From: a virus | Lineage: Duplodnaviria; Heunggongvirae; Uroviricota; Caudoviricetes | Length of the DNA stretch: 31,984 nt | Strand: one strand, 5' to 3' | Virus record (IMG/VR): IMGVR_UViG_2534682327_000012 | Shown here: piece by piece, positions 20,203 through 25,433 of the stretch | Layout of the letters: the number at the start of each line of letters is the position of its first letter | Numbering within the stretch: the first letter of the stretch is position 1 | Notes under the pieces: generated by a model | Database searches by the model: none | What the model was told of the DNA's origin: nothing | The model's input: the letters and a program-made list of their open reading frames with translations, nothing else | Program-made: the position numbers and the translations under genes

Positions 20203-22497
20203 ATGAGCACAAAATTCAGAACCGTTATCACCACTGCCGGTGCAGCAAAGCTGGCAGCGGCAACCGCACCGGGAGGGCGGAAGGTCAACATTACCACGAT
20301 GGCCGTCGGGGATGGCGGTGGTAAATTGCCTGTCCCGGATGCCGGACAGACCGGGCTTATCCACGAAGTCTGGCGACATACGCTGAACAAAATCAGCCAG
20401 GACAAACGAAACAGTAATTATATTATCGCAGAGCTGGTTATTCCGCCGGAGGTGGGCGGTTTCTGGATGCGTGAGCTTGGCCTGTACGATGATGCGGGAA
20501 CGTTAATTGCCGTGGCGAACATGGCCGAAAGTTATAAGCCAGCTCTTGCCGAAGGCTCAGGGCGTTCGCAGACCTGTCGCATGGTCATCATCGTCAGCAG
20601 TGTGGCCTCGGTGGAGCTGACCATTGACACCACAACGGTGATGGCGACACAGGATTACGTTGATGACAAAATTGCAGAGCACGAACAGTCACGACGTCAC
20701 CCGGACGCCTCGCTGACCGCAAAAGGTTTTACTCAGTTAAGCAGTGCGACCAACAGCACGTCTGAAACACTGGCCGCAACGCCGAAAGCGGTAAAGGCCG
20801 CCTATGACCTTGCTAACGGGAAATATACCGCACAGGACGCTACCACTGCGCGAAAAGGTCTTGTCCAGCTCAGTAGTGCCACCAACAGCACGTCTGAAAC
20901 GCTTGCGGCAACGCCAAAGGCGGTTAAGACAGCGTATGACCTTGCTAACGGGAAATACACTGCACAGGACGCCACTACAGCGCGAAAAGGTCTTGTCCAG
21001 CTCAGTAGCGCCACCAACAGCGATTCTGAAACGCTTGCGGCAACACCAAAGGCGGTTAAGACAGCGTATGACCTTGCTAACGGGAAATACACTGCACAGG
21101 ATGCCACCACAGCGCGAAAAGGTCTTGTCCAGCTAAGTAGTGCCATCAACAGCGATTCTGAAACGCTGGCCGCAACGCCAAAAGCAGTGAAGTCTGCCTA
21201 TGACAATGCTGAAAAACGTCTTCAGAAAGATCAGAACGGTGCGGATATTCCGGGAAAGGATACCTTCACGAAAAATATCGGTGCCTGTCGTGCTTATAGC
21301 GGCGCTTTGAGCACTGAAGCCGGAAACTGGACAACCGCTCAGTTTATTGAATGGCTGGATTCCCGTGGTGCATTTAATCATCCGTACTGGATGTGCAAAG
21401 GCTCCTGGTCATATGCAAATAACAAAATCATTACGGATACCGGATGTGGTGATATCCACCTGGCTGGTTGTGTCGTCGAGGTCATGGGAACTAAATCTGC
21501 AATCACTATCCGAGTGACCACGCCAACAACATCAAGCGGTGGCGGTACAACCAGCGCGCAATTCACTTACATAAATCATGGGGACGGCTACTCCCCCGGC
21601 TGGCGTCGTGACTGGAATCGTCAGGGCGACTCAATGACCGGAACGATTAATCAGGATGGCGGAAGCCAGAATGCCTATATGTCTACGGCCTTATGTTCAG
21701 GCACCAGAGGCGGCAAAAAATATCTCAGAAAGTTTCGTGGTGGAGAAGGAGATACTATCTGGCATGAAACAGTTCAGGGCGGGGTAATTCGCTGGGCGAC
21801 AGGAAACAATGACGCTCAGGAAGAATTATCACTCAGCTCCGCTTATGGTCTCCGTTCAAGAGGTGAAATTACATCACTCAGTGCTAATGGTCTGCGCATT
21901 GCTTATGGCAATTATGGATTCTTTATCAGGAATGATGGCGGCAGCACATATTTAATGCTGACGGCCTCTGGCGATAAATTTGGGACATGGAACGGCTTAA
22001 GACCGCTGACTATCAATAACGCCAATGGCGGAGTGTCAATGGGGCATGGCCTGAGTGTTACAGGTGATATTGTCTCAAGTACCAAAGTACGTGCCGGTAG
22101 CGGGAAAAAGTTCACGGTCAGCAGCAGCAATACATCCACGAAGGAAGCCGCATTCAATTTGTGGGGAAACTCAAGTCGTCCTGTGGTGGCTGAATTAGGT
22201 GATGATGCAGGCTGGCATTTTTACAGTCAGAGAAATACAGATAACAGCATCACTTTTGCTGTTAACGGGCAGGTATCACCATCTAACTATAGTAATTTTG
22301 ATTCCCGTTATGTACGCGATATCCGGCTTGGGACTCGAGTTGTCCAGACCATGAAGAAAGGGGGGATGTATGAGAAAGCAGGGCACGTAATTACCGGGCT
22401 TGGTATTATCGGTGAAGTCGATGGTGATGACCCCGCAGTATTCAGACCAATACAAAAATACATCAATGGCACATGGTATAACGTCGCACAGGTGTAA
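20203..22497 (+). CDS. H: Tail fibre protein H, 764 aa, with an internal tandem repeat array
   Basis: Conserved N-terminal part MSTKFRTVITTAGAAKLAAATAPGG; Ser/Thr/Gly-rich C-terminal receptor-binding part; followed by tail fibre assembly gene G. Confidence 0.9.
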   Translation: MSTKFRTVITTAGAAKLAAATAPGGRKVNITTMAVGDGGGKLPVPDAGQTGLIHEVWRHTLNKISQDKRNSNYIIAELVIPPEVGGFWMRELGLYDDAGTLIAVANMAESYKPALAEGSGRSQTCRMVIIVSSVASVELTIDTTTVMATQDYVDDKIAEHEQSRRHPDASLTAKGFTQLSSATNSTSETLAATPKAVKAAYDLANGKYTAQDATTARKGLVQLSSATNSTSETLAATPKAVKTAYDLANGKYTAQDATTARKGLVQLSSATNSDSETLAATPKAVKTAYDLANGKYTAQDATTARKGLVQLSSAINSDSETLAATPKAVKSAYDNAEKRLQKDQNGADIPGKDTFTKNIGACRAYSGALSTEAGNWTTAQFIEWLDSRGAFNHPYWMCKGSWSYANNKIITDTGCGDIHLAGCVVEVMGTKSAITIRVTTPTTSSGGGTTSAQFTYINHGDGYSPGWRRDWNRQGDSMTGTINQDGGSQNAYMSTALCSGTRGGKKYLRKFRGGEGDTIWHETVQGGVIRWATGNNDAQEELSLSSAYGLRSRGEITSLSANGLRIAYGNYGFFIRNDGGSTYLMLTASGDKFGTWNGLRPLTINNANGGVSMGHGLSVTGDIVSSTKVRAGSGKKFTVSSSNTSTKEAAFNLWGNSSRPVVAELGDDAGWHFYSQRNTDNSITFAVNGQVSPSNYSNFDSRYVRDIRLGTRVVQTMKKGGMYEKAGHVITGLGIIGEVDGDDPAVFRPIQKYINGTWYNVAQV
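20722..21204 (+). repeat. In-frame 132-bp (44-aa) tandem repeat, about 3.7 copies, within H (unit KGLVQLSSATNSTSETLAATPKAVKTAYDLANGKYTAQDATTAR)
   Basis: Copies begin at 20722, 20854, 20986 and 21118; copies 2 and 3 are nearly identical at the DNA level. Confidence 0.9.
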
Positions 22498-22500
22498 TTT

Positions 22501-23028
22501 ATGCAGCATTTAAAAAATATTACTGCGGGTAATCCAAAAACTGTTGCCCAATATCAACTGACAAAAAATTTTGATGTTATCTGGTTATGGTCCGAAGAGG
22601 GAAAAAACTGGTATGAGGAAGTAAGTAATTTTCAGGCAGACACGATAAAGATTGTTTACGACGAGAATAATATAATTGTCGGCATCACCAGAGATGCTTC
22701 AACGCTTAACCCTGAAGGTTTTAGCGTTGTCGAGGTTCCTGATATTACCGCCAACCGACGTGCTGATGACTCAGGGAAATGGATGTTTAAGGATGGTGCC
22801 GTGATTAAGCGGATTTATACGGCAGACGAACAGCAACAACAGGCAGAATCACAAAAGGCCGCGTTACTTTCCGAAGCGGAAAGCGTTATTCAGCCACTGG
22901 AGCGCGCTGTCAGGCTGAACATGGCAACAGATGAGGAGCGTAGCCGACTGGAAGCATGGGAACGCTACAGTGTTCTGGTCAGCCGTGTGGATCCTGCAAA
23001 TCCTGAATGGCCGGAAATGCCGCAATAA
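22501..23028 (+). CDS. G: Tail fibre assembly protein G, 175 aa
   Basis: Immediately downstream of H; size and order. Confidence 0.85.
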
Positions 23029-23157
23029 GTGATATGATCTCTTGTGTTAGTTAACATAGCTATAGTACAGAGTAAGGCCTAATCTGACAGTCCGCTCTGT
23101 GCTAGGAGCGGACATTATCAACATCATGCTATGTTAATGTATAAAGTGAAGATAAAT

Positions 23158-23166
23158 TGATATAAT
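23158..23166 (+). promoter_or_regulatory. Candidate extended -10 promoter element TGaTATAAT upstream of the slot-3 cargo gene
   Basis: TG-n-TATAAT seen in the AT-rich G/FI intergenic region; no good -35 hexamer found. Confidence 0.3.
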
Positions 23167-23416
23167 AAGGCCACCATGAATATTTCAGAACCTTGTCAAA
23201 AGGTTTGCCCATACTCTAGTCTTGCAATGTGTAGTTGATAGTTCCACTGAGGAGGTTCTTCGACATTCTTTATAAAAATGTACATTTTCATCAATAATAA
23301 GAGGTAAAAGGGCTTTAATAGTTTTTGTGGATGTTATTTCTACTCATAAATTTTGAGATAAGTATTGAGTTGAGATAAAGTTAAACTCGTTAAATTCACC
23401 TTTAAAAGGATAAAAC

Positions 23417-23944
23417 ATGGACTGGAAAGATCTTGCATCAACCGCTGTGTATACAGGTATGACTGATGAAAATGAAAGCATATGGGAACGTGTTGATGGG
23501 GTTGACGTTGCCTTCATAGGTGCCTTTCTTACTGCGCACTTGAGCCTTGAAAAGTATATTACTGATTATCTTGGATTAAGATATCCTTCGTTAGCTTGGG
23601 GTGATGCAAAACTCACATTTTCACAAAAAATAGCTTTAATACAACATGAGCCTGCAAAACCCCCTTATGATGAAATATATTTAAGAATAAAAGACTTTAA
23701 CAGCATAAGAAATAAAATCAGTCATCAATTGAATTATCAGATTACGGATAAAGAAAAAAGTAAGTTTGTGGACTTCTATATGAAGATTACTAAAGCCAGT
23801 AAAACTAAACCAAATATTGATATTGATAACATGGCAGATTTGTTGGGTTTTTTCGTATCGATGACAAAATCCTATTTTGCTAGTGCTATTTCTTATTATC
23901 ATTATAATAAAAAGGTTGCAGGTAAAAGTAATAAAATTGATTAA
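23417..23944 (+). CDS. Low-GC cargo protein in the Z/fun slot, 175 aa; candidate HEPN-like RNase (motif R98-N-K-I-S-H103)
   Basis: RBS AAGGA ~7 nt upstream of the ATG; AT-rich; RNKISH encoded at 23708..23725 fits the HEPN Rx4-6H motif with the usual Asn after Arg; a terminator follows downstream. Confidence 0.75.
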   Translation: MDWKDLASTAVYTGMTDENESIWERVDGVDVAFIGAFLTAHLSLEKYITDYLGLRYPSLAWGDAKLTFSQKIALIQHEPAKPPYDEIYLRIKDFNSIRNKISHQLNYQITDKEKSKFVDFYMKITKASKTKPNIDIDNMADLLGFFVSMTKSYFASAISYYHYNKKVAGKSNKID

Positions 23945-24119
23945 TAAAACTGGACTTAGGGATAATTAATATATAGACGTTCTATCATTTTTAGAGTGTG
24001 CGGCAGCTCCATACATTCATGCGGATGTCAGCACCTCGCTCAAAGCAGACAGTCAGATTTGATAGCGTTTGGACTATGTAAATAGTCAGTTGGAAAATGA
24101 GTGAGTACAAATCAGGACA

Positions 24120-24146
24120 GGCGGGCGAATTGCCCGCCTTTTCTTT
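24120..24146 (+). terminator. Rho-independent terminator: GGCGGGC, loop GAATT, GCCCGCC, then TTTTCTTT
   Basis: 7-bp GC-rich stem, 5-nt loop and U-tract seen directly, ~175 bp downstream of the slot-3 cargo gene and ~100 bp upstream of FI. Confidence 0.75.
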
Positions 24147-24242
24147 ATCTGTTGTTTCATCCACTGACCAGCCAGGTCAAATAGCGTCTCATGCTCTGCA
24201 CAACAGAAAATAGTTGCACCCATTAACCACGGAGTTAAACGG

Positions 24243-25433
24243 ATGAGTGACTATCATCACGGCGTGCAGGTGCTGGAGATTAACGACGGCACCCGCGTCA
24301 TTTCCACCGTATCCACTGCCATTGTCGGCATGGTCTGCACGGCCAGCGATGCGGATGCGGAAACCTTCCCCCTCAATAAACCTGTGCTGATTACCAATGT
24401 GCAGAGCGCAATTGCAAAGGCCGGTAAAAAAGGCACGCTGGCGGCGTCGCTGCAGGCCATCGCTGACCAGTCAAAACCGGTCACCGTTGTCGTGCGTGTG
24501 GAAGACGGCACCGGCGACGACGAGGAAACGAAACTCGCGCAGACCGTTTCCAATATCATCGGCACCACCGACGAAAACGGTCAGTACACCGGACTGAAAG
24601 CCCTGCTGGCGGCGGAGTCGGTAACCGGTGTTAAACCGCGTATTCTCGGCGTGCCGGGACTGGACACCAAAGAGGTGGCTGTTGCACTGGCATCAGTCTG
24701 TCAGAAGCTGCGCGCTTTCGGGTATATCAGCGCATGGGGCTGTAAAACCATTTCCGAGGTGAAAGCCTACCGTCAGAATTTCAGCCAGCGTGAGCTGATG
24801 GTCATCTGGCCGGATTTCCTCGCATGGGATACGGTCAGCAGCACCACCGCCACCGCGTATGCCACCGCCCGTGCGCTGGGTCTGCGCGCTAAAATCGACC
24901 AGGAGCAGGGCTGGCATAAAACGCTGTCCAACGTCGGGGTAAACGGTGTTACCGGCATCAGCGCATCTGTATTCTGGGATTTGCAGGAGTCCGGCACCGA
25001 TGCTGACCTGCTTAACGAGTCAGGCGTCACTACGCTGATTCGCCGCGACGGTTTCCGATTCTGGGGTAACCGTACCTGCTCTGATGACCCGCTGTTCCTT
25101 TTTGAAAACTACACCCGCACCGCGCAGGTGCTGGCCGACACGATGGCTGGGGCGCACATGTGGGCGGTGGACAAGCCCATCACCGCAACGCTGATTCGCG
25201 ACATCGTTGACGGCATCAATGCCAAATTCCGTGAGCTGAAAACAAACGGCTATATCGTGGATGCGACCTGCTGGTTCAGCGAAGAATCCAACGATGCGGA
25301 AACCCTCAAGGCCGGAAAACTGTATATCGACTACGACTATACACCGGTACCTCCTCTTGAAAACCTGACCCTGCGCCAGCGTATTACCGATAAATACCTG
25401 GCAAATCTGGTCACCTCGGTTAACAGCAATTAA
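24243..25433 (+). CDS. FI: Tail sheath protein FI, 396 aa
   Basis: RBS GGAG upstream; size and order. Confidence 0.92.
   Translation: MSDYHHGVQVLEINDGTRVISTVSTAIVGMVCTASDADAETFPLNKPVLITNVQSAIAKAGKKGTLAASLQAIADQSKPVTVVVRVEDGTGDDEETKLAQTVSNIIGTTDENGQYTGLKALLAAESVTGVKPRILGVPGLDTKEVAVALASVCQKLRAFGYISAWGCKTISEVKAYRQNFSQRELMVIWPDFLAWDTVSSTTATAYATARALGLRAKIDQEQGWHKTLSNVGVNGVTGISASVFWDLQESGTDADLLNESGVTTLIRRDGFRFWGNRTCSDDPLFLFENYTRTAQVLADTMAGAHMWAVDKPITATLIRDIVDGINAKFRELKTNGYIVDATCWFSEESNDAETLKAGKLYIDYDYTPVPPLENLTLRQRITDKYLANLVTSVNSN

Follow-up and report, generated by a model that had tools for sequence, protein, structure and literature searches.

The window analysed here is a stretch of 31,984 nucleotides from a tailed-virus genome (Caudoviricetes; IMG/VR record IMGVR_UViG_2534682327_000012), and its region of interest is the 388-bp spacer at 23029-23416 that separates the tail fibre assembly gene G from a downstream cargo gene. 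The initial annotation had presented this spacer as an AT-rich, structured non-coding region with a 10-bp inverted repeat enclosing a tighter hairpin, an extended -10 element and a direct repeat, and had read it as the boundary scar of a cassette exchange, a regulatory operator, or a small structured RNA partner of the cargo protein such as an RNA antitoxin. Direct reading and a repeat search recovered all of these features in their places, and the measured GC content of 0.31-0.38, versus 0.5-0.6 in the flanking phage genes, bears out the AT-richness. The spacer and its surroundings comprise the following features:

22501-23028, + strand: gene G, tail fibre assembly protein (Pfam Caudo_TAP, E 1.6e-36), the left backbone flank of the cargo slot
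23029-23113, no strand: backbone 'left inverted repeat' of the P2 Z/fun slot, the first ~85-110 bases of the spacer, with a GenBank-annotated homologue
23051-23060, no strand: 5' arm of the 10-bp inverted repeat, TTAACATAGC, inside the backbone left repeat, where the consensus is CTTACATATC
23090-23113, no strand: site A, a 24-nt palindromic core GTCCGCTC-TGTGCTAG-GAGCGGAC (hairpin), with the backbone/cassette junction after position 15
23114-23175, + strand: cassette leader of the lost gene 1, aligning upstream of gene 1 in Citrobacter L134 and Superficieibacter L133
23128-23137, no strand: 3' arm of the 10-bp inverted repeat, GCTATGTTAA, a cassette-leader sequence that falls within a degenerate ATGTTAAT motif
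23176-23325, + strand: pseudogene, the 5' part (about 58 codons) of cassette gene 1 (blastn, tblastn and alignment)
23326-23416, + strand: predicted promoter and ribosome-binding-site region of the cargo gene (blastn against the segment upstream of gene 2 in L134, 72%, E 2e-18)
23417-23944, + strand: cargo gene for a 175-aa HepS-like HEPN-motif protein (homologues, PDB profile and AF2 fold match)
23945-24035, + strand: cassette trailer, closing with the cassette's own half of site B; conserved, as far as B, in the copies of Citrobacter, Superficieibacter and Serratia
24027-24050, no strand: site B, GTCAGCAC-CTCGCTCA-AAGCAGAC, the heterologous counterpart of site A in inverted orientation, with backbone again from B10 (24036)
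24036-24242, + strand: right backbone flank upstream of FI, with the right inverted-repeat arm (TGTCAGATT, GCTATGTAAAT) and an intrinsic terminator at 24119-24139

The cargo protein has homologues in Enterobacterales at 59-89% identity, belongs to no family in Pfam, NCBIfam or PADLOC, and is encoded in 50 of 5,426 complete E. coli genomes (about 1%). Residues R98, N99, K100 and H103 are invariant, R98 and H103 having been checked in 21 homologues, and an Rx4-6H motif lies in an all-helical domain that the AF2 model builds from six helices. A profile search against the PDB matched HepS (9oij_A, E 7.7e-4) over the RNKxxH region, and HepS was also the best Foldseek match of the AF2 model (pLDDT 72.8), with a probability of 0.99, a TM-score of 0.44 and an E value of 0.034. 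HepS is a HEPN nuclease from the Gifsy-1 prophage that acts in abortive infection as a single protein (Sargen et al. 2026, PMC13043305). The cargo protein is likewise prophage-borne, small and all-helical, with an invariant RNKxxH and with HepS as its best PDB match in both sequence profile and fold; it differs in that identity to HepS is only 16-18%, with a TM-score of 0.44 and a profile E value of 7.7e-4. On these comparisons the cargo is a putative HEPN nuclease, and as such potentially toxic; as a single gene it is a candidate anti-phage system.

Gene G stops at 23028, and a block of homology to other P2-like phages starts at 23029-23033. The stretch 23029-23113 matches about 1,200 E. coli genomes together with P2, Wphi and L-413C, whatever the cargo (the common block running from 23033 to 23116 or 23138), and the remaining spacer is confined to the 50 genomes that carry the same cassette. 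The homologous stretch is annotated as 'left inverted repeat' in AJ512676-83 (including AJ512680 and AJ512683), where a 'right inverted repeat' precedes FI; identity is 77-86% to these annotated repeats (query 5-84/110) and 80-88% to whole-phage records, for example P2 and Yersinia phages. A right inverted repeat, inverted relative to the left one, also precedes FI in the window: in the alignment the TTACATA-type and AATCTGACA (23081-23089) blocks of the left repeat recur inverted on the right side, and 23081-23115 matches 24025-24059 in inverted orientation at 28/35 positions (E 6e-6). The left and right inverted repeats of the Z/fun slot are already described (Nilsson, Karlsson & Haggard-Ljungquist 2004, Mol Biol Evol 21:1), and, as a review summarises that work, the authors are reported to have proposed that the repeats mediate exchange between phage and bacterial genomes. 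The elements of the window share the position of those repeats (after G and before FI), their sequence, and the foreign low-GC cargo between them; the records of that study (AJ512676-AJ512683) differ in being without the HepS-like HEPN gene of this window and its decayed partner gene.

The left repeat ends in site A, whose arms at 23090-23097 and 23106-23113 enclose the loop tgtgctag. This hairpin is present as initially described and is conserved at cargo boundaries; among 2,000 dinucleotide-preserving shuffles of the 388-nt spacer, a GC-rich 8-bp hairpin of this kind has P = 0.001. Its reality follows, independently of the shuffle test, from its conservation in more than 1,000 genomes. As single-stranded DNA, site A folds at -9.2 kcal/mol (z -4.1). 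The same shuffles gave P = 0.055 for a perfect inverted repeat 10 bp or longer whose arms lie within 100 nt of each other and P = 0.065 for a perfect direct repeat 9 bp or longer whose copies lie within 30 nt, and of the listed repeats the hairpin alone clearly exceeds chance by itself. The outer 10-bp inverted repeat is present with arms that are 100% complementary, and its 5' arm is invariant in six copies of the cassette, but it is not conserved as a boundary mark: the ATGTTAAT motif that holds the 3' arm belongs to the cassette leader, is common to about 10 different cassettes (seen in L021, L014, L083, L044 and EC46), and in the Citrobacter cassette the identical CATCATGCTATGTTAATGTATAGAGTGA stands without any 5' partner. 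A backbone block and a related block of the cassette leader match here, by accident or through homogenisation, and so give the 10-bp repeat.

Rightwards of site A, the aligned leader holds TGATATAAT at 23158-23166, just as the initial annotation reported, followed by an AAGG Shine-Dalgarno sequence at 23167-23170. In the alignment TGATATAAT overlies the ribosome-binding-site region of the dead gene 1, and intact cassettes are without its TATAAT, having GTTAAT and AATGAT there instead. Where intact, gene 1 encodes a 170-aa Rx4H protein. In the window it is frameshifted as a result of 19-nt and 5-nt deletions and meets a stop after 20 codons, and about 540 nt are deleted relative to the intact two-gene cassette of Citrobacter and Superficieibacter. 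The match to the intact Citrobacter cassette extends over 250 nt at 72% (blastn, E 8e-38), tblastn returned matches in two frames (E 4e-4 and 0.01), and an independent blastn with the Citrobacter cassette as query retrieved the 50 E. coli genomes with this cassette at 83% (E 5e-29). The pseudogene had gone unnoticed in the initial annotation.

The 91 bases before the cargo gene contain the direct repeat TTGAGATAA, 9 nt long with a 17-nt period, at 23353-23361 and 23370-23378, so that the earlier placement at about 23355-23385 was approximately right. A -35-like box TTGAGA (23370-23375) and a -10-like TAAATT (23391-23396) are separated by 15 nt, and AAGGA at 23406-23410 forms the cargo ribosome-binding site. 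The GGAT of the latter is invariant in 6/6 aligned taxa, and TTGAGA or TTGATA is kept in 4/6, having diverged in Citrobacter and Superficieibacter. From these alignments we infer that TTGAGA/TAAATT may be the active cargo promoter. A sigma-70-type scan of 22400-24400 found 6 promoter-like sites versus 6.5 expected. Most simply, copy 2 of the direct repeat would be the -35 of this promoter and copy 1 a half-conserved upstream copy; copy 1 is absent in Superficieibacter and weakly recognisable in Serratia, Yersinia and Pectobacterium. Among six phages with the same cassette, the 148 nt of 23029-23176 hold 0 variable sites, compared with 4.0 per 100 nt in the pseudogene and 3.4 in the coding sequence, and this invariance could reflect constraint on the leader or merely the small sample of six copies.

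Taken together, the 388-bp spacer appears to consist of four pieces of different origin with no single structured element, a reading to which we give a probability of roughly 0.8. Piece i (23029-23113) would be phage backbone, the left boundary of the P2 Z/fun cargo slot ending in site A; piece ii (23114-23175) a leader brought by the incoming cassette; piece iii (23176-23325) the remains of cassette gene 1 after the frameshifting deletions and the ~540-nt deletion; and piece iv (23326-23416) the promoter and ribosome-binding site that would serve the surviving HepS-like HEPN gene. The homologies, the junction positions, the pseudogene and the absence of an RNA-structure signal are matters of direct observation. 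What had looked RNA-like is mainly a known recombination boundary plus a dead gene. The proposal of a boundary scar holds for the 5' third of the spacer, in which 23029-23113 is homologous to the annotated left inverted repeat, similarity to the backbone stopping within the hairpin across 56 different cargo junctions, but the word scar does not fit a conserved site that has an inverted partner across the cargo. Likewise, the suggested comparison of G/FI regions across P2-like loci found that the hairpin marks cargo boundaries and that the 10-bp inverted repeat does not.

Two other readings would place the function of the spacer at the level of RNA or of an operator. A structured small RNA partnering the cargo, for example a type III antitoxin made from the direct repeats, or an operator formed by those repeats, would account for the perfect extended -10, for a 9-nt repeat of 17-nt period just upstream of the cargo ribosome-binding site, and for a potentially toxic putative HEPN nuclease beside it; a repeat preceding a putative nuclease gene, in a setting of phage defence, also recalls ToxIN-like type III toxin-antitoxin systems. 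The window differs from these systems in having no tandem ~36-nt units, no terminator, another toxin fold, and a repeat whose conservation does not follow that of the gene: the 9-nt unit occurs just twice, Tandem Repeats Finder reported no tandem array in the spacer, no terminator lies between repeat and gene, and copy 1 has the patchy distribution described above. The RNA form of this reading further conflicts with an Rfam search of the spacer that returned noise only (E 0.9 and 9.5), a whole-spacer folding z-score of -1.0, the missing TATAAT of intact cassettes, and the single-protein action of the characterised relative HepS. Moreover, in other genomes 23140-23365 does not accompany the cargo gene, no more than about 50-80 nt upstream of the ATG is common to its closest homologues in other contexts, and Serratia has the gene 70 nt past site A without any of 23140-23350; the operator form has to contend with a cassette without a regulator gene. 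With no Rfam match, tandem array, covariation or unusual fold energy, and with most of the sequence being decayed coding sequence, the RNA partner or RNA antitoxin of the initial annotation is not borne out. The reading as a whole, RNA partner or operator, strikes us as extremely improbable; for an operator by itself the results speak neither way, and the spacer may yet yield a transcript from TGATATAAT or a processed RNA. The nested hairpins might alternatively act on the late V-W-J-I-H-G transcript as a terminator, an attenuator or a 3'-end stabiliser after G. The site A hairpin lies 62 nt past the G stop on the sense strand and is kept throughout the P2-like phages, G-U pairing would accommodate several of its variants, and in the RNA fold of 23029-23176 (z -2.05) the nested helices are the minimum-free-energy structure. 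Yet the stem is followed by ATTATCAAC, without a U-tract, and a terminator scan found nothing within 23029-23416; the annotated P2 V-operon terminator is a different element further downstream; and site A also works in either orientation and, on plasmids and chromosomes, in places that are not transcribed. Across 71 distinct A sites, arm positions are paired in 79.4% of cases versus 80.0% for shuffled partners, so that the covariation check suggested earlier came out negative. An apparent compensatory change in the hairpin, seen by eye between Wphi (GTCCAC/GTGGGC) and the window (ATAGC/GCTAT), likewise had no counterpart in the counts on the 71 sites. A transcript-level role is unlikely on this evidence, and the spacer is best read as the composite of four pieces set out above.

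How cassettes enter and leave the slot can be approached through the boundaries themselves. Sampling of 120 IMG/VR phage loci gave 56 distinct junctions on the left and 47 on the right, and in every one the backbone gives way to cargo at the same positions within A and B; one cargo class stops exactly after GTCCGCTCTGTGCC, without the 3' arm. On the left, conservation over the 56 junctions is mostly 76-100% from position -59 to +15, counted from site A (one position 44%, one 67%), and within the site profile A1-15 stand at 87% or more, A16-17 at 53-55% and A18-24 at 69-100%, followed by TT at +26/+27 and then background. On the right, the profile from 47 junctions has B1-7 at 63-95%, B8-9 at 48-57%, and B10 onwards mostly above 85% (lowest 65%), and a 365-nt query (24036-24400) is 94-100% identical (two loci 88%) in more than 100 phage loci. 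The sites bracket at least 48 distinct cargos, with 830-5,824 nt between them in the phage loci and a cargo GC of 0.26-0.40 versus 0.5-0.6, and site B lies 83-101 nt past the cargo stop codon in every context. Cargo cassettes would be exchanged between sites A and B, the outer half of each site staying with the backbone and the cassette bringing the inner half together with the flanking GTT or AAC; the probable route, we infer, is recombination at these two sites or close beside them. At least some exchange is nevertheless ordinary homologous recombination in G and not at site A, since in six phages with this cassette the left inverted repeat moves together with it, and G is mosaic, with 13.6 variable sites per 100 nt at its 3' end (22801-23028). 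An empty slot was found in none of the 5,426 E. coli genomes or 120 phage loci, the shortest interval being about 440 nt. The two ends of a cassette were also examined for co-variation of rare variants, and this idea was dropped (365 identical positions versus 365.3 expected; p = 0.53, permutation, 36 cassettes).

The sites extend beyond phages. In chromosomes of Superficieibacter, Citrobacter, Pectobacterium and Serratia that are without P2 genes, A and B enclose the same cargo gene, and two Serratia strains have identical sequence to the right from position 2 of a B site and unrelated sequence to the left. More generally, A and B sites, often as B-A doublets, bound accessory modules on chromosomes and plasmids across Enterobacterales. 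The pattern used in a genome-wide scan was too loose, most matches in high-GC taxa being chance, and both full sites occurred in Enterobacterales matches only. The 28 distinct B-A doublets lie between operons with linkers of 14-18 nt and show covariation above shuffles under neither a long-hairpin nor a two-hairpin model. Mean column identity is 86-88%, and the centres of the sites are near-invariant. AAC, AAT or AAG precedes B in 34 cases and GTT or ATT follows A in 28, and the fold is closed by AAC/GTT. An Rfam search of the doublet loci gave no match, and a literature search for the site sequences found nothing.

What moves the cassettes has two principal explanations. A and B may belong to a REP/BIME-like family of palindromes, the slot lying between two half-doublets and the cargo moving by homologous or illegitimate recombination with no dedicated enzyme, a view we put slightly below an even chance. 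It fits short palindromes arranged as inverted, intergenic doublets with 14-18 nt linkers, neighbours that are ordinary accessory operons (LysR, aldo-keto reductases, MFS transporters, GNAT, ars, ncr), no recombinase found among the 118 ORFs around the sites, the mosaic G beside an invariant left inverted repeat, and one phage in which the G 3' end and left inverted repeat are duplicated. Homologous recombination alone, however, would not predict a junction at one fixed nucleotide in a 24-nt site; the sites occur at 1-6 places per E. coli genome, consistent with P2-like prophages only; and the GT(A/G)G head typical of REPs is absent. That fixed junction nucleotide, in 56 left and 47 right junctions, is what would be expected if A and B were recognition sites of a dedicated site-specific system that swaps cassettes precisely among P2 slots, plasmids and arrays on chromosomes. 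Both sites are laid out as arm, centre and arm of 8-8-8, and the centres, GTGCCA in A and TCGCTCA in B, are conserved across genera even in arm-only searches; the arms are kept as sequence without compensatory change, as expected of a protein-binding site. Outside phages, AAY precedes B (34 cases) and GTT or ATT follows A (28 cases), the B-A doublets fold as long imperfect hairpins closed by AAC/GTT (z -4.1 to -4.7) and occur on 319 plasmids, and Ewingella has 10 sites in 8 kb between small co-oriented ORFs, including GNAT and ASCH. A dedicated system remains doubtful in our judgement: no recombinase family that might act on A or B recurs among the 118 ORFs around the sites (8-kb slices), the two ends of one cassette do not co-vary, the breakpoints of this cassette lie in G and not in A, cargo orientation in the P2 slot is mixed, and neither an empty site nor a circular cassette junction was seen. 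A further form of it, in which A and B would be heterospecific sites of a trans-acting Enterobacterales cassette-exchange system with its own site type and no linked integrase, we hold to be rather unlikely.

A/B doublets resemble integron attC sites: each is an imperfect palindrome of about 70 nt that separates cassettes and is closed by AAC...GTT, and the small co-oriented ORFs of GNAT or unknown type between the Ewingella sites, as well as cassettes shared between replicons, are integron-like. The differences are that in A and B the sequence itself is conserved and not structure alone, with no covariation; that the phage slot consists of two half-sites in inverted order and not of one complete site; and that A/B cassettes carry their own promoters and occur in both orientations. 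Integrases, IntI included, are absent among the 25 most frequent Pfam families of the 118 neighbouring ORFs in the 8-kb slices. With REP, BIME and REPIN elements, A and B share short palindromic units in inverted pairs with short linkers, extragenic at operon ends, but in E. coli they lie at P2-type slots only, and no RAYT or GTAG-type head was identified. No REP element is known from a fixed cargo slot of a phage. In the pdif modules of Acinetobacter plasmids, accessory genes lie between XerC/XerD sites of alternating orientation with no recombinase in the module; the likeness is one of logic only, A/B modules also being bounded by short alternating sites on plasmids and chromosomes without a recombinase gene, and by eye A and B are unlike dif-type XerC or XerD arms. 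XerCD/dif is no more than a lead, a XerD-arm-like TTATGTTAAT being present in some cassette leaders only, with no XerC-like arm before it. The core of the R64 shufflon sfx site, GTGCCAA, equals the centre of site A, with different arms. ERIC elements, with which two 10-mers seemed to be shared, were ruled out, the sites not being multi-copy in E. coli.

For the annotation of P2-like prophages, the composite origin of the spacer means that gene remnants such as the one described here are to be expected beside cargo genes. Recent surveys state as unknown how P2 hotspots swap defence genes, whether among phages or with other mobile elements, and the A and B sites of the Z/fun slot offer a concrete, testable candidate for the mechanism of cargo exchange. 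If the heterospecific-site proposal were true, accessory and anti-phage modules would be moved precisely between the Z/fun slot, plasmids and chromosomal arrays, in the manner of an integron or of recombinase-mediated cassette exchange.

The window comes from an E. coli prophage of the P2-like (Peduovirus) type, and the 388-nt spacer under study occupies the upstream part of its Z/fun cargo slot, which is already known and which recent surveys name as a hotspot. The slot and the features considered here are as follows:

up to 23028: G, tail fibre assembly gene (Caudo_TAP)
23029-23416: the spacer
23051-23060 and 23128-23137: arms of a 10-bp inverted repeat
23090-23113: site A, the 24-nt palindromic core formed by a GC-rich hairpin
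23158-23166: extended -10 element
23353-23361 and 23370-23378: copies 1 and 2 of a 9-bp direct repeat
23417-23944: cargo ORF, 175 aa
24027-24050: site B, inverted partner of site A
from 24243: FI, sheath gene

All four spacer features described in the initial annotation, namely the inverted repeat, the hairpin, the -10 element and the direct repeat, are real and lie where it had placed them. Against 2,000 dinucleotide-preserving shuffles, the GC-rich 8-bp hairpin exceeds chance (P = 0.001); the 10-bp inverted repeat and the direct repeat are both borderline, at P = 0.055 and P = 0.065 respectively. Promoter-like sites around the spacer occur in the number expected, and no terminator-like site is found in the spacer, the sole one lying 3' of the cargo at 24119-24139. 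GC content is ~0.5-0.6 in the phage genes versus 0.26-0.40 in the DNA between them.

Of 5,426 complete E. coli genomes, 49-50 contain the entire G-to-FI interval at 99% identity, and so does one sequenced phage. In another ~1,200 E. coli genomes, conservation (~80-90%) is limited to the initial 85-110 nt of the spacer (23033-23116/23138); the same holds for P2, Wphi, L-413C and numerous phages of Yersinia and E. coli. In GenBank records AJ512676-83 (Nilsson, Karlsson & Haggard-Ljungquist 2004), this block carries the feature 'left inverted repeat', and another one located before FI carries 'right inverted repeat'; the boundary function proposed for the hairpin is thus correct but had been published before.

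The main local novelty lies in the make-up of the spacer, two-thirds of which consists of a pseudogene remnant and a probable promoter. In Citrobacter and Superficieibacter, the cargo homologue is the second of two genes, the first encoding 170 aa with its own Rx4H motif. By sensitive blastn, window 23101-23325 aligns with the Citrobacter leader and first ~58 codons of gene 1 (72% over 250 nt, E 8e-38), and 23314-23446 with the last ~105 nt upstream of gene 2 (E 2e-18); ~540 nt between the two Citrobacter-matching segments are absent from the window. The retained gene 1 codons carry 19-nt and 5-nt deletions in the alignment, tblastn matches to the gene 1 N-terminus fall in two different frames (E 4e-4 for one, 0.01 for the other), and a 20-codon ORF at 23176 (MNISEPCQKVCPYSSLAMCS) is the decayed form of MNTSEHCKEVYAYFGLAMYR... 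In default blastn against E. coli, the Citrobacter cassette matches the same 50 genomes only (83%, E 5e-29), with no intact two-gene cassette among the matches. In the intact cassettes (Superficieibacter locus L133, 2194-2706; Citrobacter locus L134, 2181-2693), both small genes encode an Rx4H (HEPN-type) motif, and gene 1 gives a weak HepT_toxin match (E 0.015). The upstream neighbour in Pectobacterium (L127:2284-2784) differs from gene 1, being a cargo paralogue (34% identity, E 4e-8).

This cassette origin alters the reading of the other features. The 10-bp inverted repeat is not a conserved boundary feature; its 3' arm (GCTATGTTAA) lies within the cassette leader and is identical in Citrobacter, there without a 5' partner. 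That arm belongs to a degenerate ATGTTAAT motif that follows site A in ~10 unrelated cassettes and resembles the right-arm backbone block GCTATGTAAAT; the 5' arm is a backbone block in a form particular to this lineage (TTAACATAGC where the consensus has CTTACATATC). The extended -10, TGATATAAT, overlies the stretch immediately preceding the Shine-Dalgarno of the dead gene, where the intact cassettes have GTTAAT and AATGAT. Copy 2 of the direct repeat (TTGAGA, 23370-23375) aligns with TTGAGA or TTGATA in three of five other taxa, Citrobacter having TTAAGG and Superficieibacter TTGGGT, and TAAATT follows 15 nt after it, then a ribosome-binding site with an invariant GGAT core. This arrangement makes copy 2 a putative -35 element for the cargo gene's promoter. 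Of copy 1, Citrobacter has a clear equivalent and Superficieibacter none; in Yersinia and Pectobacterium it can be made out only weakly.

The cargo protein has homologues at 59-89% identity in Citrobacter, Superficieibacter, Serratia, Pectobacterium, Yersinia, Ewingella and unrelated phages. Against the PDB, HepS ranks first for the cargo protein both by profile (E 7.7e-4) and by fold (TM 0.44). HepS, from a Salmonella prophage, is a HEPN abortive-infection nuclease that works as a single protein, without a partner (Sargen et al. 2026, PMC13043305). In a different P2-type phage (L128:3001-5177), a homologue (62% identity) follows the tail fibre gene beside an AbiGi-family gene, and the family recurs in phage accessory slots adjoining known abortive-infection genes.

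The suggestion that the spacer encodes a small structured RNA partner of the cargo protein found no support. Rfam returned only noise within the spacer, Tandem Repeats Finder reported no tandem array, and the whole spacer folds like its own shuffles (z -1.0); the z of -2.05 for its first 148 nt is due to the nested repeats. In a set of 71 distinct A sites, pairing reached 79.4% of cells, versus 80.0% with shuffled partners; the arms are conserved as sequence, not as helix. Further downstream, window 23900-24149 (+) gives a sub-threshold Rfam match to STnc150, a Salmonella Hfq-binding RNA (E 0.0024 on 411 nt; 24.7 bits where the gathering score is 60), spanning the right inverted-repeat arm and the terminator; an isrF match is weaker. 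The Salmonella 'sRNA' STnc150 may be the 3' end of Z-slot transcripts from a P2-like prophage.

The anatomy of the sites was derived from 120 P2-like loci, taken from IMG/VR by a pattern built on the conserved block, which contain at least 48 distinct cargos, 0.8-5.8 kb in size, and among which none has an empty slot. With left junctions aligned on the hairpin, site A reads GTCCGCTC-TGTGCCAG-GAGCGGAC. Conservation of the backbone is mostly 76-100% as far as site A position 15 and falls to 53-55% at positions 16-17; a semi-conserved 3' arm (69-100%) is followed by TT at +26/+27 and background beyond. The right side mirrors this: after AA at -2/-1 comes the 5' arm GTCCGCT, which is semi-conserved, then two variable bases and, from TCGCTCAAAGCAGAC onwards, backbone that is mostly >85% conserved (lowest 65%). 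Site B approximates the reverse complement of site A (19/24 by eye), with a different but equally conserved centre; short blocks outside the cores are also inverted (AATCTGACA/TGTCAGATT, TTACATA/TATGTAA), and window 23081-23115 matches 24025-24059 in inverted orientation (28/35, E 6e-6). The site A centre, GTGCCA(A/G) (window 23098-23104), is identical to GTGCCAA, the presumed 7-bp core of sfx sites in the R64 shufflon; the arms differ. One cargo class ends exactly at GTCCGCTCTGTGCC|, without the 3' arm. Individual loci vary further. In L083 (IMG/VR 2541047968_000016), duplication of the G 3' end and left inverted repeat has given a tandem of two cassettes, and the second left site is cut off exactly after GTGCC. 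The right junction of E. coli S10 (L260:1501-1534) is a perfect 14-bp-stem palindrome, TGACAGTCTGCTTT-TCGCTC-AAAGCAGACTGTCA (ssDNA z -5.4), whose cassette-side half looks like a copy made from the backbone half. In E. coli THO-015 (L259:330-790) the Z slot is the shortest encountered, ~440 nt from A to B, and its cargo interval contains no annotated gene; a 55-aa RefSeq 'hypothetical protein' on the minus strand over its right repeat and terminator (equivalent window ORF 23991-24164, minus strand) is probably spurious.

The same A and B sites bound cargo homologues in chromosomes without P2 genes, A lying ~60-95 nt upstream of the first gene and B 83-101 nt past the stop codon. Non-phage sites in general have AAY before B and GTT/ATT after A. 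Two Serratia rubidaea genomes are identical for 3.6 kb rightwards from position 2 of a B site and unrelated leftwards. In a genome-collection scan, noisy in high-GC taxa, true B-(14-18 nt)-A doublets were confined to Enterobacterales (Ewingella, Erwinia, Pantoea, Silvania, Scandinavium, Enterobacter, Yokenella, Citrobacter, Phytobacter and Cedecea). Ewingella americana ATCC 33852 (L221, NZ_JMPJ01000038.1 72001-80000) has ten A/B sites in 8 kb, separating small co-oriented ORFs of 125-355 aa (GNAT, ASCH and unknown families), an array that is integron-like but without an integrase in the 8-kb slice. A doublet query matches 319 plasmids, mainly of Klebsiella, Pantoea and Enterobacter, where doublets sit between accessory modules, as directly after the ncrABCY nickel-resistance operon of the K. 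pneumoniae IncN plasmid pCTX-M15_Kpn2166 (L261:4004-4069).

How the cargo is exchanged can be read in two ways. Recent large surveys describe the exchange mechanism at P2/P4 hotspots as unknown and do not mention these repeats. A site-specific process acting at A and B would fit the fixed junction nucleotide, the two different conserved centres, and the cassette limits that are identical in phage and chromosome. As ssDNA, the doublets form one long imperfect hairpin with AAC/GTT closing (z -4.1 to -4.7), recalling integron attC sites; unlike these, however, they are conserved in sequence, covariation favours no fold, and no recombinase family recurs among the 118 ORFs neighbouring the sites; these ORFs belong to the ordinary accessory repertoire, LysR regulators, reductases and transporters among them. 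REP/BIME-like elements describe the doublets as well as attC does. The alternative is that plain homology would account for exchange. Among six phages sharing this cassette, the G 3' end (22801-23028) is a recombination mosaic with 13.6 variable sites per 100 nt, whereas the adjoining 148 nt (23029-23176) are identical; crossovers in those phages fell in G. This, the phage with a duplicated G end and left repeat, and the failure of the two ends of a cassette to co-vary (p = 0.53) count for homology or against site-specific exchange. That the A/B family constitutes a distinct site-specific cassette system carries modest prior odds, roughly one in five, and the family is worth follow-up in its own right.
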